From: a virus | Taxonomy: Duplodnaviria; Caudoviricetes | Virus record (IMG/VR): IMGVR_UViG_3300025011_000016 | Reading direction: 5' to 3' (one strand) | Length of the DNA stretch: 64,000 nucleotides | Part shown: positions 43,139-53,906 of the stretch, piece after piece | Numbering within the stretch: the first letter of the stretch is position 1 | How the letters are laid out: every line of letters starts with the position of its first letter | Notes under the pieces: model-generated | The model's database searches: none | What the model was told of the DNA's origin: nothing | What the model saw: the letters and a program-made list of their open reading frames with translations, nothing else | Position numbers and translations under genes: made by a program

Positions 43139-44628
43139 ATGGCTAAATTATCAGAGGCAAATAAGTTATATTTATTAAGTCTAAACCCAGATGATATTAC
43201 TTTTGATCTTTTATTAGAATTATTTGCCCATACAACTAAAAAAGATAAAGATAATAAAGTATCTGTAGTTAAAGGTAGAATGAATATAACTGATGAATTT
43301 GAATTAAAACCTAATGAATACTTTAATAAAGTTAAAGTAAGAACTACTGCAGGTCAGTTCATATATAACAAATTAATTATTGAAACTGAATTAAGTGAAG
43401 TATTAGGATATATAAGTGACCCTTTAAATAGTAAACGATTAAAAGAATTGGAAGATGTTTTATCTAAAGCTTTATTAACAGATAAAATAACTGTTGAAAC
43501 TATGGTTAACTATCTAAATAAAGTACAATGGCTGGCACTTCAGTTTCATTCAGTTATAAGTGGTTCATTTACTATGAATACTTTAAAACCAAACAAAGTT
43601 GTAACTGCAAGACGAAATAAATTGTTAAAAGATAACGCCGAGAAAATAAAAAATGGTGATGTTATTACAGCAGTTAATATTGAAAAAGAATTATTGAAAG
43701 TTGCACAAGAAGAATTGAAAAATGATCACGGTATGGATCTTTATAAATCTGGTGCCAGAGGATCATTTGGTAATAACTTTAAGAATATATCTGTTATAAA
43801 AGGTCCAGTATTCAATCCATCGAAAGGTGTATTTGATATAGTCACTTCTAACCTAATGGAAGGTATACAGAAGAACGAGCTTACATCAGCAGGTAATAGT
43901 ATTATCAGTGGTGCTTACCCTAAAATATATTGGGGCAATATAGCGTAAGGTATATTGAAAACTATTTAAATTGACGGGAAACTCCTTAGGACTTTATATA
44001 ATAAAGATTGGACAATCCGCAGCCAAGATTCTATAATAGAATAAGGTTCAACGACTAGAGTGAGAACTCGTAAATATTAATAGTATTGAAAATGATGGGA
44101 TCTTCGTATTGGAGATTATGATATAGTCTTGTATCCTAATTAATAATAGGGAAGTTCATAAGAGAACTGTATAGATTAATAATCTATATGAAAATAACGA
44201 AAGCCATAGGAACTGCTGTGTCAGGCTATTTTGCTAAACAAATGGTTGCCTCTTTACAAGCAGTAGTATTAGATTCTATTGGTTCAGATTGTAAATCAAA
44301 AGGAACCTTAAAAGTATTTCTTACTAAAAGTCTAGCGAATGATTTCCTATATAGATATATTGTAGAAGGAAGTAAATTGATTCTATTAGACGATAATAAT
44401 ATATCAAAATATATTGATAAATTTATACAGGTGAGATCTCCTATGTATTGTATATCATCCAAGTTATGCAGGGCCTGTGCGGGACAGATGTACAACAAGC
44501 TTAAGATTGATAATATAGGATTAACAGCCGCTAAAGTTTCAACCACTTTAACCAATTTATCAATGAAAAAATTTCATAATTCATCACAAAGTATAGTTTC
44601 CCTAAAAGTGGATGAATTATGTATCTAA
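43139..44628 (+). CDS. phage RNA polymerase beta' C-terminal subunit, spliced join(43139..43921,44200..44628), 403 aa
   Basis: Splicing gives GAYP|KAIGTAVSGYFAKQMVASL (bridge helix) and GLTAAKVSTTLTNLSMKKFH (trigger loop); SGARG motif; frame preserved. Confidence 0.85.
43922..44199 (+). mobile_element. group I intron 1 (278 nt, no ORF)
   Basis: P1 CCCU^AA/UUGGGG with U.G; ttgacgggaaactcc, aatccgcagc, ggttcaacgacta, gatatagtct; terminal G. Confidence 0.9.
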
Positions 44629-44830: not shown

Positions 44831-47800
44831 ATGAGCCAACCCACAGGAGTGAAATTAGTTAAATTAGATTGGAATAAGGAGTGTGAAAAAGATTTTATAA
44901 CTGGTAAAGGTTTTGAAATTACTGAAGTTGCTTTTAAGAAAAAGGATGAGAAAACCTTTAAAGGGAAACCTGATGATTCAAATGGTAAGAAAGAAAAATC
45001 ATATAATGGTATGCACTCAAGTAGATACGCTTCGGATTAATTATTAGTCCCTTCATGTAGTAATACATGTTGTAAACTCTCTTAATTGCGGGGATCTCCT
45101 TAGAGCTTAAACTACTTATATAGTAATAACGTTTAAGATTGTATGATCCGCATCCAAAATTCTATTAAATAGATATGGTTCAACGACTAGAGAAATCTCG
45201 TAAATATAATTGTTATATTGAAATAGAGAGCAACCTAATTAATTAGGTTGATGATATAGTCTTGTATCCTAATTAACATTAGGGAAGTTCATTTGAGAAC
45301 TGTATAGAGTTACAATCTATATGAAAGTATCGTGGGGGGATGAAGATGCATTTGCAGAAAGATATTCCTGTAAATGTAAAGATTTAAAAGGTAGAGTTTA
45401 CGAAGATGAAATATGTAAAATGTGTGGTACTAAAGTAGTTTTTAAAGATGTTGATATGAAAATCACAGGATGGATAAAACTACAACATCATGAAATTATT
45501 CATCCGATATTCTATAAGATGATTAAATCTATTATAGGTGATAAAGTATTTAATGAGATAATTGAATATGATAAGGACATAACTAGAGAAGGAATTGCTT
45601 TAAGTAAAGAGGGTAAGAATCCATTTAAAGGTATTGGTTTGATTGAATTCAGAGAACGTTTCGATGAAATCTTGTTTTATTATAAAGATAAGAAAAAGAA
45701 TAAGATTGACTTAGTTAATGAAGTATTAGCTGAAAGAGAAAAAGTATTTACATTTTGTTTACCAGTTTATTCTTCTGTTTTAAGACCAGTATCATTTAAA
45801 GGTGAAAGTTATTACTATAACTTTATTGATAGAAAGTATAATGCCATATTTTCATTATCACGATTATTAAATACTAAAGGTCCAATGCCTAATGTTAATG
45901 GCATGAAAGTTAAAACAAGTAAGATGGATGAACCAACTATATTACAATCAATGCAAAAGAAAGTTATTGATCTATGGCAATTAATCTTCTCTGAAATTAA
46001 TCAGAAGTCGGGCCACATAAAGGATGGAGTTTGTCCCATCGTAGAGTGATTTACGTTGAAAACTATTTTTAATTGCGGGAATATTCTTAGAACTTCTTTA
46101 TGGAAGATTGGGCAATCCGCATCCAAGTCTCTTTTATATAAGAGAAAGGTTCAACGACTATCCTTTAGTGTTGAAATACACAATAGGAGTAGGGCCTAAG
46201 TAGGTGGGTGAGATTCCCTTAAATCGAAATAAAATGCATCTCGTTGGAGATGATGATATAGTCTGAACTTCTATTGAAAGATAGAGAGAGGTGAAATTCC
46301 TTTGCATTATTTTACAAATAATGTCTACGACTGCAAATTCTCGGTGGTAGGATCAACTTTAGTTCAAGAAATGTAATTATACCGGACCCACAACTAAAAT
46401 CCGATGAAATAAGATTAGGGTATCTTGCTTTTCTAGAGCTATTTAAATATGAAATAATTGCTCATGTCGTTAAGATGAATGATATTTCTGAAAATGAAGC
46501 ATATGAGCAATGGTTTAAAGCAAGTATCAACTATAACAAGAAGATTTATGAAGTGATGATGTACCTAGTTAAGAAAAGAAAACCACGAGTGATCATAAAC
46601 CGAAACCCTAAATAATGTGGGGCGTTATAGAGTGATCTATAAGAGTAAACTATTTTAATTGACGGGAAACTCCTTAGGGCTTCGTAAATGAAGATTGGAC
46701 AATCCGCAGCCAAGTCTCTTATATAAGAGAAAGGTTCAACGACTATCCTTTAGTGTTGAAATACACAATAGGAGTAGGGCCTAAGTAGGTGGGTGAGATT
46801 CCCTTAAATCGAAATGAAAGCATCTTTATAAGATGAAGATATAGTCTTATATCCTAATGAAAGTTAGGGAAGTTCATAAGAGAACTGAGCTACGTTACGT
46901 GTATCTCGAACTCGGGACAATTAATTACGGATCTGAACTCTTAATGAAGATAGTTGATATTAAAAATGAATATAAAGATGATTATACTATGAGTTTACCT
47001 ATTCAAATATTACGAGTACTAAACGCGGATTTGTAACAAAGTCCGGTTATAATAGTAATATTATAACGAGTTCCATGTGAACGCCTAACAAGCGGTGTGA
47101 GAGATATATTATGCTCTTGCTAACGGTAGAAGCGAAATATGCAGAATAAGCTTCGTAAGAGAATCTACGGTCCTGAAATATGGATAGCGTGACAATACCG
47201 TGCCAAGTTCCTATTAATTGTAAGTTCGCAAACAATCTACAAACAGTTAGGATGGTGAAATATCTTGCGTATACTGATTAAACCATATGGGGTAGTTTAT
47301 ATAATGAGAAATTTAATAGATACTAAGGTATATATCGGACAGACTGTAAATCTTGAGAGGCGAAAAAATGAACATAAAAACCGTAAATCCTCATCCAGTA
47401 AGAGATATAATTTTCATATTACTAAAGTTATAGAAGAATATGGATATGAAAATTTTGAATTTAAAGTTTTAGATGAAGCGTTTTCTAAAAAAGACTTAGA
47501 CGATAAAGAGAAATATTTTATATCCTTATTTAAATCCAATGATCCTAAATATGGATATAATTCAAGAGGAGGTAATTTACAAGAACCATTAAATCAGAGA
47601 ACTAAAGATTTAATGTCTAGTTCTCATATAGGCTTGACTGAAACTGCCATAACTAAAAGAAAAAAGTCTCATAAAATTTTAGCATTTAAAGATAATGTAT
47701 GTCTAATTGTGGATAGTGGTAAATTATTTGGTGATATGATTGGAAAAGATAGAAATAATGTAACAAATGCTTTACGAAAGGGAATAAAAATAAAAGGTTA

Positions 47801-48515
47801 CTATGTATTTTATCTAAGTAGTAAAAAACGTGAAGAAGTAATTAAGAAATCTGATGATTGGGCTTATTGCGAACTAAGCCGATTAATAGGAAACGGTGTA
47901 GAGGCCATCGAGCAATCGTATGTTATAGATTATATAACATATGATTGAGTAGAGTACTGGTCGGTTTGCGGGCCGATTGGGAAGCGCATGGCTCCAATAC
48001 TATAGATATATAATATTGGATGAAGATATGGTCCACCCCTATATGAAAATATAGGATGTGGTGTTCGACGGCCAATGTATATGACCGGTGATTCTTTAAT
48101 TGACGGGAATATCCTTAAAGCTTAGACTACTAATGTAATAATGTTTAAGATTGGACAATCCGCAGCCAAGTCTCTTATATAAGAGAAAGGTTCAACGACT
48201 AGAGTGAGAACTCGTAGATACTTTATGTATTGAAATGGGAAACCGATAGATTAAATCTATCGAAGATATAGTCTATTATCCTAATGAGTATTAGGGAAGT
48301 TCATAAGAGAACTGTATAGATTTATAATCTATATGAATATAAAGGATATATTGAATATTATTTCACTGAAGACTAAGAAACTAATTAAAGCTTATGATAA
48401 GACATTTAATCCGAGAAAGAATATGTTCATTTCTAGAAATGATGGATTATTTAATGATGATTTCAATCTACTAAAAGATCAACTTATTGGTCTATATGAG
48501 TTTAACAATATTTAA
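44831..48515 (+). CDS. phage RNA polymerase beta' N-terminal catalytic subunit, join(44831..45037,45333..46025,46334..46609,46917..47030,48064..48072,48345..48515), 489 aa
   Basis: Splicing restores Zn finger CKC..CKMC, KD|QILGGRINFSSRNVI, NRNP|TIN and NAD|FDG|DILN; all exons in frame; AAGGAGG RBS before ATG 44831. Confidence 0.88.
45038..45332 (+). mobile_element. group I intron 2 (295 nt, no ORF)
   Basis: P1 GGAU^UAA/UUAGUCC; ttgcggga, atccgcatcc, ggttcaacgacta, gatatagtct; terminal G. Confidence 0.9.
46026..46333 (+). mobile_element. group I intron 3 (308 nt, no ORF)
   Basis: P1 GGAU^/GUCC; ttgcgggaa, aatccgcatcc, ggttcaacgacta, gatatagtct; terminal G. Confidence 0.88.
46610..46916 (+). 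mobile_element. group I intron 4 (307 nt, no ORF)
   Basis: P1 CCCU^A/UGGGG; ttgacgggaaactcc, aatccgcagc, ggttcaacgacta, aagatatagtct; terminal G. Confidence 0.88.
47031..48063 (+). mobile_element. group I intron 5 (1033 nt) with homing endonuclease ORF, divergent core
   Basis: P1 CGGAU^UU/AAGUCCG; aataccgtgccaag; P7 ggcca 47903-07/tggtc 48029-33; terminal G. Confidence 0.82.
47265..47948 (+). CDS. intron-encoded GIY-YIG homing endonuclease
   Basis: GVVY..N.ID.KVYIGQT..LERR..EH, E.YFI..F....GYN; NUMOD3-like TKDLMSSSHIG; TTG start. Confidence 0.88.
   Translation: MRILIKPYGVVYIMRNLIDTKVYIGQTVNLERRKNEHKNRKSSSSKRYNFHITKVIEEYGYENFEFKVLDEAFSKKDLDDKEKYFISLFKSNDPKYGYNSRGGNLQEPLNQRTKDLMSSSHIGLTETAITKRKKSHKILAFKDNVCLIVDSGKLFGDMIGKDRNNVTNALRKGIKIKGYYVFYLSSKKREEVIKKSDDWAYCELSRLIGNGVEAIEQSYVIDYITYD
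48064..48072 (+). other. 9-nt micro-exon TTCGACGGC (Phe-Asp-Gly) of the RNAP active site
   Basis: Only sequence between the terminal G of intron 5 and intron 6; completes NADFDGD. Confidence 0.8.
48073..48344 (+). mobile_element. group I intron 6 (272 nt, no ORF)
   Basis: ttgacgggaa, aatccgcagc, ggttcaacgacta, aagatatagtct; 3' end atatg+9 nt ending in G as in introns 1 and 2. Confidence 0.85.
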
Positions 48516-51770: not shown

Positions 51771-53906
51771 ATGAATTATACTGATATCAATGATGCATAC
51801 CATAAAGAGATACTTGATCTAGCATCTAAATTTGACGCACCGAAGTATTATATAAATCGAGAATTGAGTTTTCTTGATTTTAATAAACGGGTGTTACATC
51901 AAGCATTAAGGAAAGAGATTCCATTATTAGAAAAATTAAAGTATCTTGGAATCACTGCTTCAAACTTAGATGAATTTACAATGGTTAGATTTTCATACTT
52001 ATTAAATAAGCTTGATTTAAATAGTGATCAAGAAGAATTGTCAGGTTTAACAGCTATGGAAGAATATGAACAAACTCTTGATGAAATACTTAAATTTAAA
52101 CATCTTCAATTACAGACATATGAAAAGTTAGTCAGTAAGCTCAATAAAAATAACATTCATATTTGTAAATTTAGTGAATTGAGCAGTAAAGAGAAAGGAT
52201 ATGTTGAAAAGTTATTCTCTCGTAATATATACCCATTAATAACTCCTATCACTTATGATACTTCTAAAGAACTTCCTTCACTGAAATCTAGACAACTTAA
52301 TATAGTGGTTTCATTAAAGGATAATCATAATCGAAATCTAGAGGTCATATCATTAATAACCCTAGATAAATCTTTAGATCGAATCTATAAGATAGAAAGT
52401 GATGACATTGAGGAGGATAAATATATCTTATTAGAAGAGATAGTATTTAATTTCCTTCATAGAATATTCATCAATAAAACTATTTTATATAAAGGTTGTA
52501 TGAGGATACTAAAGGAAGCTAATATAGATCTAGATAATGATACGGATATCTATATCACAGATCGTATGAAACAGAATTTACTTCAAAGGGAGTTAAGTCA
52601 ACCAATATTCATGGATGTGACAGAAGATATTCCCAAACACATTCTAAAGTTATTGGTAAATATATTCGATTTAAATAAACGACATATTTTTAAATCGAAT
52701 ATGATATTAAACTTATCATTCCTATCTAATTCACCAATCAAAAATGCTTCATTGGAATATGTCCCATTCAGTCCTCAGTTTCCTCAAGAATTGATAGGTG
52801 AACATGATATGTTTACAGCAATTGATACTAATGATATAATTCTCCACCATCCATATGAGAGTTATTCCCCTGTTGTAAATTTCATTGAACATGCATCTGT
52901 TGATCCAAATGTACTTGCCATTAAGCAAACTCTATATAGAGTATCCTCACCAGATTCACCAATAGTTGAGGCTTTATGTAGAGCTGCTGAGAATGGTAAA
53001 CAAGTTAGTGTATTATTAGAAATAAAGGCTCGTTTTGATGAAGATCGAAATATATCTTTAATTGAAAAATTAAAACTATCTGGATGTAAATTGATCTATG
53101 GAGTCGAGGAATTTAAAACTCATTGTAAATTTATTATTGTAGTTAGGAAAAGTAATAAGGGTTTACGATTATATTCTCATCTCGGAACTGGTAATTATAA
53201 CGATACTACAGCGAAGATATATACCGATCTATCATACTTTACATCTAAGGAAAAGATTGGTGAGGATTTACTGACAGTTTTCAATATACTATCAGGATTT
53301 TCAGAACCAACTATTGAAGTGAATAAGTTATTCTTTTCTCCTTATAATTTAAGAAGTAAGTTATATGAACTAATTGATCGTGAAATAGCTATAGCCAAAG
53401 AAGGTAATAAAGCTTCTATTACTTTCAAATTAAATTCATTATCTGATAAGGGGATGATTAAGAAACTTTATAAAGCATCCGAGGCTGGAGTTAAAATTAA
53501 TCTCATATGTAGAGGAATTTGCTCAATGAAAGCTATTAACAAGAATATATCCATTAGAAGTATTGTGGGTAGATTCTTAGAGCATAGTCGAATATATTAT
53601 TTCTACAATTCAAATAAACCATTGTTATTTATATCCAGTGCCGATTTATTAACTCGTAATTTAAATAAGAGATTTGAATTATTAATTCCATTAACTGACG
53701 CTGAGGTTAGAAGTAAACTATTAAATATACTAGATTCATATTTTAAAGATAACTTCAATACTTATTTAATGGATGATAAAGGATGTTATAAGTTACTTAA
53801 AGATACCAATGTTTTTAACATTCATGAGTACTTTATGAATAGGGCTATAGAGAATTACAAGCTAAAGAATATACCTAAGATGAGTTTTAAGAAAAAGAAA
53901 AAGTAA
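51771..53906 (+). CDS. ppk1: polyphosphate kinase 1
   Basis: YINRELSFLDFNKRV, SNLDEF, LHHPYESY, IKQTLYR, EIKARFDE, KTHCK (phospho-His), GTGNYN, SIVGRFLEHSRI, ISSAD. Confidence 0.95.
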   Translation: MNYTDINDAYHKEILDLASKFDAPKYYINRELSFLDFNKRVLHQALRKEIPLLEKLKYLGITASNLDEFTMVRFSYLLNKLDLNSDQEELSGLTAMEEYEQTLDEILKFKHLQLQTYEKLVSKLNKNNIHICKFSELSSKEKGYVEKLFSRNIYPLITPITYDTSKELPSLKSRQLNIVVSLKDNHNRNLEVISLITLDKSLDRIYKIESDDIEEDKYILLEEIVFNFLHRIFINKTILYKGCMRILKEANIDLDNDTDIYITDRMKQNLLQRELSQPIFMDVTEDIPKHILKLLVNIFDLNKRHIFKSNMILNLSFLSNSPIKNASLEYVPFSPQFPQELIGEHDMFTAIDTNDIILHHPYESYSPVVNFIEHASVDPNVLAIKQTLYRVSSPDSPIVEALCRAAENGKQVSVLLEIKARFDEDRNISLIEKLKLSGCKLIYGVEEFKTHCKFIIVVRKSNKGLRLYSHLGTGNYNDTTAKIYTDLSYFTSKEKIGEDLLTVFNILSGFSEPTIEVNKLFFSPYNLRSKLYELIDREIAIAKEGNKASITFKLNSLSDKGMIKKLYKASEAGVKINLICRGICSMKAINKNISIRSIVGRFLEHSRIYYFYNSNKPLLFISSADLLTRNLNKRFELLIPLTDAEVRSKLLNILDSYFKDNFNTYLMDDKGCYKLLKDTNVFNIHEYFMNRAIENYKLKNIPKMSFKKKKK

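Follow-up and report, generated by a model that had tools for sequence, protein, structure and literature searches.

Two predicted group I introns leave a 9-nucleotide exon in the catalytic motif of a jumbo-phage RNA polymerase gene

The split beta'-N gene and its product

The DNA analysed here, referred to as the window, is the whole stretch of 64,000 nucleotides (nt) in the IMG/VR record IMGVR_UViG_3300025011_000016, a virus of the class Caudoviricetes. Positions 44831..48515 of its forward strand carry a split gene for the beta'-N subunit of a jumbo-phage RNA polymerase, which was identified by tblastn, alignments and Pfam, and was modelled with six exons and five introns (I1 to I5) and a spliced product of 489 amino acids. 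The three aspartates of its catalytic motif NADFDGD are encoded on three different exons. Exon 4 (46917..47030) ends with the codons AAC GCG GAT for N-A-D (AACGCGGAT, 47022-47030), including the first catalytic Asp; a micro-exon of 9 nt, TTC GAC GGC (TTCGACGGC, 48064..48072), encodes F-D-G with the second; and the last exon (48345..48515, 56 amino acids and a stop codon) opens with GAT ATA TTG AAT (GATATATTGAAT, 48345-48356), beginning with the third. The coordinates of these three segments, the placement of the three Asp codons on three exons and the product length of 489 amino acids had all been proposed in an earlier model reading made without database searches (hereafter, the sequence-only reading), and the present gene model reproduces them exactly. 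The two introns that isolate the micro-exon, numbered 5 and 6 in that reading, are I4 (47031..48063), which has 1033 nt, an endonuclease open reading frame (ORF) and a G as its last base (G48063), and I5 (48073..48344), which has 272 nt, no ORF and no P2.

The gene has tblastn matches to phiR1-37 g274 (E 7e-22) and AR9 gp270 (E 1e-9). Its 489-residue product was aligned over the full length with both proteins, without gaps across ...NADFDGD(I/V)LN..., and the micro-exon is needed for this gap-free match, so that the alignment proposed in the sequence-only reading as a check of the motif came out in its favour. All five exon junctions are gap-free against both the intron-less relative P0025 (= L003) and the one-intron relative L004, and the NADFDGD motif is intact again in the spliced product. 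The last exon shares 94.9% amino acid identity with L004 and aligns with D-VLNII... of AR9. Whole-length homology, an end shortly past the catalytic loop and a separate adjacent gene for beta'-C identify the predicted product as a split beta'-N subunit of the AR9/phiKZ type; the polymerase is putatively non-virion rather than virion, a type assigned from best hits only.

The upstream part of the gene is divided by three more group I introns (a slash marks the intron position in the junctions given below). Exon 1 (44831..45037) is preceded by a ribosome-binding site, AAAGGAGG, and ends in TCG GAT. It is separated by I1 (45038..45332; P1 GGAU/GUCC; 3' tail TGAAAGTATCG; 58.1 bits with the Rfam model RF00028) from exon 2 (45333..46025, placed by product alignment), and their junction ASD/WGDEDAF corresponds to ATD/WEDEDAF in an intron-less relative. 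I2 (46026..46333; 69 bits) and I3 (46610..46916; P1 CCCU/GGGG; 100.7 bits) flank exon 3 (46334..46609) with the gap-free junctions HIKD/QILGGRINF and NRNP/TINYGS. Exon 3 alone scores 24.3 bits with PF00623 (cut-off 25.3), and the intron-less relative P0025 scores 41.3 bits. The neighbouring beta'-C gene (43139..44628, forward strand) contains one group I intron (43922-44199; 63.9 bits); its spliced product has 404 amino acids, with the junction GAYP/KAIGTAVSGYF as in intron-less homologs.

A near-identity search of phage genomes returned nothing but 52-nt matches to the intron element in Vibrio phages, and a scan of viral contigs with exon 2 as the query gave no match. The 52-nt segment lies in the 3' region of I3 (46836-46887) and is 94% identical to the Vibrio phages JA-1, VCO139 and JSF3, where it is annotated as an HNH homing endonuclease; this match indicates that the intron element has spread far beyond the present phage group.

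DNA and assembly evidence for the micro-exon

Searches with RF00028 (gathering threshold 50 bits) placed five group I introns above threshold in the 43.9-48.3 kb region. One of these matches, at 58.8 bits, covers 48056-48296, beginning at the micro-exon, and gives I5 a group I core. The pattern G-TTYGAYGGN-C occurs once on both strands of the 64-kb window, as compared with 0.08 occurrences expected, and this sole match falls in the gap of about 30 nt that separates the cores of I4 and I5.

Over 46786-48164, DNA contigs from three groundwater samples match the window exactly. In these samples, exon 4, I4, the micro-exon and 92 nt at the start of I5 lie together on one unitig. The phage is present at about 250x depth with an identical sequence in the three samples, where no variants were found at 48072 or 48084, the two positions that face each other at the 5' splice site of I5. 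An independent Joint Genome Institute (JGI) assembly (L007) is identical over 48055-48360, and two further contigs (L009 and L010) are identical to the window as far as their ends. Given the gap-free match to homologs and the intron states of the relatives described below, the micro-exon is real at the level of DNA and comparison.

The assemblies break at repeated intron cores. Depth at four cores (43955-44145, 46056-46246, 46629-46819 and 48157-48347) exceeds the phage baseline by a factor of 4 to 20, reaching about 5000 in sample X1 against a baseline of about 260, and this raised depth points to many paralogous intron copies in the genome or the community. Apparent joints in DNA contigs were considered as intron-less alleles and rejected, as they connect paralogous intron cores and are repeats.

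The upstream intron and its endonuclease

The 5' splice site of I4 is placed by a P1 pairing between 47026-47030 and 47041-47045 (CGGAU/GUCCG) that contains U47030.G47041; the hairpin has a predicted energy of -9.2 kcal/mol (z-score -2.9). Among seven orthologs, 94.6% of the cells in the P1/P2 alignment are paired and 9 of 14 pairs are altered on both sides (e.g., GCUGAU/GUCAG in L021), a covariation that none of 500 shuffles attained. The U.G pair at the 5' splice site is invariant in all seven, and a G directly precedes TT(T/C)GA in all orthologs, which gives I4 its terminal G. The conserved core is visible in six orthologs; in the window, RF00028 yields a sub-threshold match to the 3' 140 nt only (47916-48055, 32.5 bits), the core being interrupted by the ORF. 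This ORF (47304..47948, forward strand, 214 amino acids) encodes a predicted GIY-YIG homing endonuclease with the PF01541 domain at residues 2-78 (38 bits, cut-off 22.6), and the same ORF was called in L007. For P10 of I4, only 48064-48067 are usable, and the pairing is weak (U-A, U-A, C opposite A, G-C); it is weaker than in the relatives because their TTT codon is TTC in the window.

The downstream intron and its splice sites

I5 belongs to an intron family marked by a 21-nt element, which turned up in over 114 metagenome contigs. One rule holds for the 3' end of the intron in over 100 copies: the element, a hairpin, an 11-nt tail (consensus TGAATATAACG) and then the exon. Intron-less homologs confirm the rule for the two closest paralogs from the same genome, the beta'-C intron (43922-44199) and I1 (45038-45332), with which I5 shares 77% identity. 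The I5 tail, TGAATATAAAG, aligns column for column with the tails of both, G48344 closes the family tail TGAANNNANNG as the terminal G of the intron, and a paralogous copy of I5 diverges immediately after 48344. Alternative 3' splice sites immediately behind the final hairpin (following 'ctatatg'), which would give a 492-residue product and an isoform with the insert NIK, were ruled out by the tail rule and by the intron-less homologs, which place the junction 9 nt further on.

Terminal G48344 and the coding need of DFDGD together put the 5' cut of I5 after GGC, so that the base at -1 is a C. The proposal of the sequence-only reading that P1 of this intron is formed with the micro-exon holds: 48069-48074 are predicted to pair with 48082-48087, and the lowest-energy local fold contains (by the last two digits of each position) C69-G87, G70-C86, G71-C85, C72 opposite A84, C73-G83 and A74-U82. 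The U.G pair is therefore missing at this splice site, where C48072 faces A48084. In three relatives that also lack P2 (L129, L040 and L093), the guide consists of the 4 nt that adjoin P3 on its 5' side, and the G with which it starts pairs with U(-1); the 4 nt at this place in I5 are A84 C85 C86 G87, and the shared guide position independently supports the P1 register. The C and A facing each other suggest a matched double change from U.G to a C.A wobble.

The micro-exon itself, TTC GAC GGC, differs from TTT GAT GGN in five relatives (L004, L017, L019, L020 and L021). Its synonymous GAC creates the C69-G87 pair of the I5 P1, and C48066 disrupts a pair in the P10 of I4. The GAC codon fits either co-conversion with the intron or a later adaptation to it.

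Introns at the catalytic motif in related phages

Among the relatives, the motif is intron-free in L003 and L029, which read AAT GCA GAT TTT GAT GGN GAT without interruption. Six others (L004, L017, L019, L020, L021 and L095) carry an intron orthologous to I4 directly after NAD; its last base is G, and the codons TTT GA(T/C) GGN GA(T/C) ATx CTx AAT continue after it without a break. Both sites, NAD/F and G/D, are filled only in the phage of the window, including its copies in other assemblies; contigs P0010 and P0024 stop short of the motif.

More broadly among beta'-N orthologs from metagenomes, every codon boundary from the first to the third Asp of DFDGD bears an intron in some lineage: after the first Asp in the family of I4 and in L092 and L084, after Phe in L112, after the second Asp in L041, L042 and L052, after Gly in the window and in AR9, and after the third Asp in the case of the second intron of L084, L063 and L074. 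The AR9 intron lies between GGT and GAC of DYDG/D in g270; the intron that the sequence-only reading mentioned for AR9 is thus found in this same gene and at the same G/D boundary as I5. Of the 111 distinct copies sampled from the family that carries the 21-nt element, 17 (about 15%) reside at the catalytic motif.

The sequence-only reading knew of no comparable triple split. The arrangement is new as such, but related 12-nt micro-exons encoding FDGD are present in other metagenomic phages. In L084 and L063, two tandem group I introns enclose a 12-nt exon, TTTGATGGAGAT, within AAD/FDGD/TLNIL; loci with tandem introns around a 12-nt micro-exon are L084:4668-5300, L063:10515-11154 (minus strand) and L074:1265-1968 (minus strand), and both introns begin with CAAT(T)GGTCC after a GAT codon. 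By this comparison, the window is the extreme case of a recurrent intron hot spot.

Two other loci show closely spaced introns. On the minus strand of L127 (at about 80-500 in the reverse complement), two introns flank a 21-nt exon, TTAAATGCAGACTTTGATGGC (LNADFDG); the second intron has a C before the cut opposite an A (AUGGC/ACCAU). The third Asp codon was not found downstream in L127, and this contig was not used as support. In another gene of L084 (2086-2669), adjacent group I introns (Rfam matches 2086-2365 and 2401-2669) suggest a further very short exon.

Outside the intron-bearing genes, a full-length polyphosphate kinase 1 gene was observed at 51771-53906, a few kb downstream of the polymerase genes, and it has the same position in related phages (L004:9451-11451 and L021:17454-18684).

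Origin of the micro-exon and alternative explanations

In our assessment, it is likely that I4 and I5 are distinct mobile group I introns that entered NAD/F and G/D in independent events, leaving a genuine 9-nt exon between them. The upstream intron, which in the window carries a GIY-YIG homing endonuclease, also occurs in at least six related phage lineages, and the downstream one is an ORF-less member of a family repeated many times in the genome, occupying the site of the AR9 g270 intron. After transcription, each ribozyme would excise itself: I4 by means of its P1 (CGGAU/GUCCG, with the U.G pair) and terminal G48063, and I5 by means of a P1 (CGGC/ACCG) built wholly on micro-exon bases and terminal G48344, with C(-1) opposite the guide A probably forming a C.A wobble where U.G is usual. 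Both excisions would restore NADFDGD and yield the 489-residue subunit. In any order of the four transesterification steps, the micro-exon would stay joined to either I4 or exon 4 and no free 9-mer would arise; since one side or the other would hold it at every stage, the two introns should not have to splice in a set order. The presence of one intron or none at the motif in related phages points to piled-up selfish insertions in a hot spot, and the arrangement appears to reflect selfish introns accumulated on a conserved active-site sequence rather than a designed switch.

Several points weigh against this explanation. The splicing of the introns is deduced from DNA anatomy and comparison. 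The I5 P1 hairpin is weak (-3.2 kcal/mol, z-score 0.46), no better than shuffled sequences. A U at -1 is required by the Tetrahymena ribozyme, and C paired with G, which impairs that ribozyme at neutral pH, is tolerated only at low pH (PMC13692252), so I5 with its unusual C(-1) could splice poorly. RF00028 gave no match on the ORF-less ortholog of I4 in L019, and the group I class of I4 is based on orthology and covariation because Rfam scores only part of its core. Finally, metagenomes contain the central part of I5 (about 48165-48292) in about 20-fold repetition, so the linkage of the two halves of I5 relies on the assemblers, with independent assemblies in agreement.

A first alternative takes the unusual splice site at face value: C(-1) would cripple I5, and the gene would be inefficiently expressed or becoming a pseudogene. 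The C in place of U, the weak P1 and the restriction of the insertion to this lineage would all fit such decay. We nevertheless consider it unlikely, in view of an intact last exon with 95% amino acid identity to a relative, the depth and the identical sequence of the phage in three samples, and an I5 core that otherwise scores above the Rfam threshold; moreover, the A opposite the C resembles a matched double change from G.U and not random decay. Equally doubtful is the opposite extreme, that I5 is a naturally active ribozyme with C(-1).A instead of the near-universal U.G. In this reading, the C.A pair and the 9-nt exon would make splicing, and with it the inclusion of the second catalytic Asp, dependent on conditions (pH, Mg or order), and I5 would time or throttle the production of the non-virion RNA polymerase.

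The sequence-only reading envisaged a possible post-transcriptional switch, in which splicing at the 9-nt exon is ordered or competitive and skipping of this exon produces a dead enzyme. Such a product of skipping from NAD to DILN might also be dominant-negative, and the switch would act on the non-virion RNA polymerase. Part of this stands, as skipping of the micro-exon does keep the frame (NAD-DILN). Two ribozyme cores of about 250 nt could hardly dock together on 9 nt, and the rate at the weak I5 P1 with its C.A could vary with conditions. Exon skipping by group I introns has also reportedly been seen in orf142 of phage Twort, a gene said to contain three introns. The postulated competition, however, finds no shared bases, since the micro-exon positions used by the I4 P10 (48064-48067) and by the I5 P1 (48069-48072) are separate and the micro-exon would stay attached throughout. 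Close relatives manage with one intron or none at the motif, which indicates that the layout is not a conserved feature, and the I4 guide has no complementarity to the start of the last exon (GAUAUA), leaving skipping without P10 support. As a whole, the switch is speculative and, in our view, quite unlikely to explain the arrangement.

A different 3' end for I5 has even less in its favour. Splicing at G48335 would give the in-frame product NADFDG-NIK-DILN, with the third Asp displaced; G48335 directly follows the hairpin, and a P10 of 5 base pairs could form between AAUAUA and 48078-48082, in the register that also applies to GAUAUA. Yet the equivalent G is present and unused in two paralogous introns, where homologs put the splice 9 nt on, the tail rule is kept in more than 100 copies, and no homolog has three extra residues at this place, all of which makes the shorter intron very improbable. 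Lastly, chance FDG codons or a misjoining of introns at cores that are repeated about 20-fold, and within which unitigs do break, can be practically dismissed in the face of the single unitig through exon 4, I4, the micro-exon and the 5' part of I5 in three samples, the identical L007 assembly, a pattern expected 0.08 times per window and yet located exactly between the introns, and a product aligned without gaps.

Implications

Gene callers recover the beta'-N gene as fragments only (ORFs of 242, 59 and 60 amino acids) and miss the 9-nt exon, so the polymerase would be annotated without its catalytic loop; splice-aware, homology-guided annotation is needed for intron-rich jumbo phages. The locus illustrates clearly how mobile introns home to the sequence that an essential enzyme can least afford to change. 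It leaves the general picture of phage introns unchanged, and function is inferred here. Among the new points, the C.A splice site lends itself best to testing. In ribozyme engineering, the need for U at -1 is described as restricting programmable trans-splicing (PMC13692252), and a natural intron tolerant of C(-1)-A, if true, would be of interest to this field.

Comparison with known systems

Introns in jumbo-phage RNA polymerase genes have been described (10.1101/2020.12.14.422802, PMC11620839), Jug phages have about 18.5 group I introns per genome (PMC12880540), and mobile introns prefer active sites (PMC12908238). The literature searched describes no 9-nt phage exon, no split catalytic triad and no introns splitting DFDGD. 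Very short exons that are flanked by introns and missed by standard annotation have a precedent in the 1-bp exon of placozoan cox1, and organellar micro-exons of this kind have been recovered by alignment or RNA sequencing (PMC5436844); they belong, however, to eukaryotic mitochondrial genes, and not to a bacterial virus or to the active site of an RNA polymerase.

As for the splice site, the studies of the Tetrahymena G.U pair (Knitt 1994, Strobel & Cech 1995), as far as they are cited in PMC13692252, resemble the present case in that the -1 base and its guide partner define the 5' splice site. They deal with engineered substitutions, whereas I5 has a natural apparent C(-1)-A whose activity is predicted only.

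The gp210 intron of phage PhiPA3 (PMC11620839) is likewise mobile, belongs to group I, carries a homing endonuclease and is inserted beside conserved Asp residues of a jumbo-phage RNA polymerase. It is a single intron in a virion beta subunit and its function has been shown in phage-phage competition, whereas the window is known from its sequence.

The closest counterpart in gene and position is AR9 g270, a homologous non-virion beta'-N gene with a phase-0 intron that separates Gly from the final Asp in D(F/Y)DGD and a P1 built from the exon bases ...GACGG(U/C). In AR9, this is the single intron of the motif, it carries the HNH gene g271 and its P1 has a normal U.G pair (GACGGU/GCCGUC), whereas in the window I5 is ORF-less, has the apparent C.A in place of U.G and is preceded, 9 nt upstream, by a second intron.

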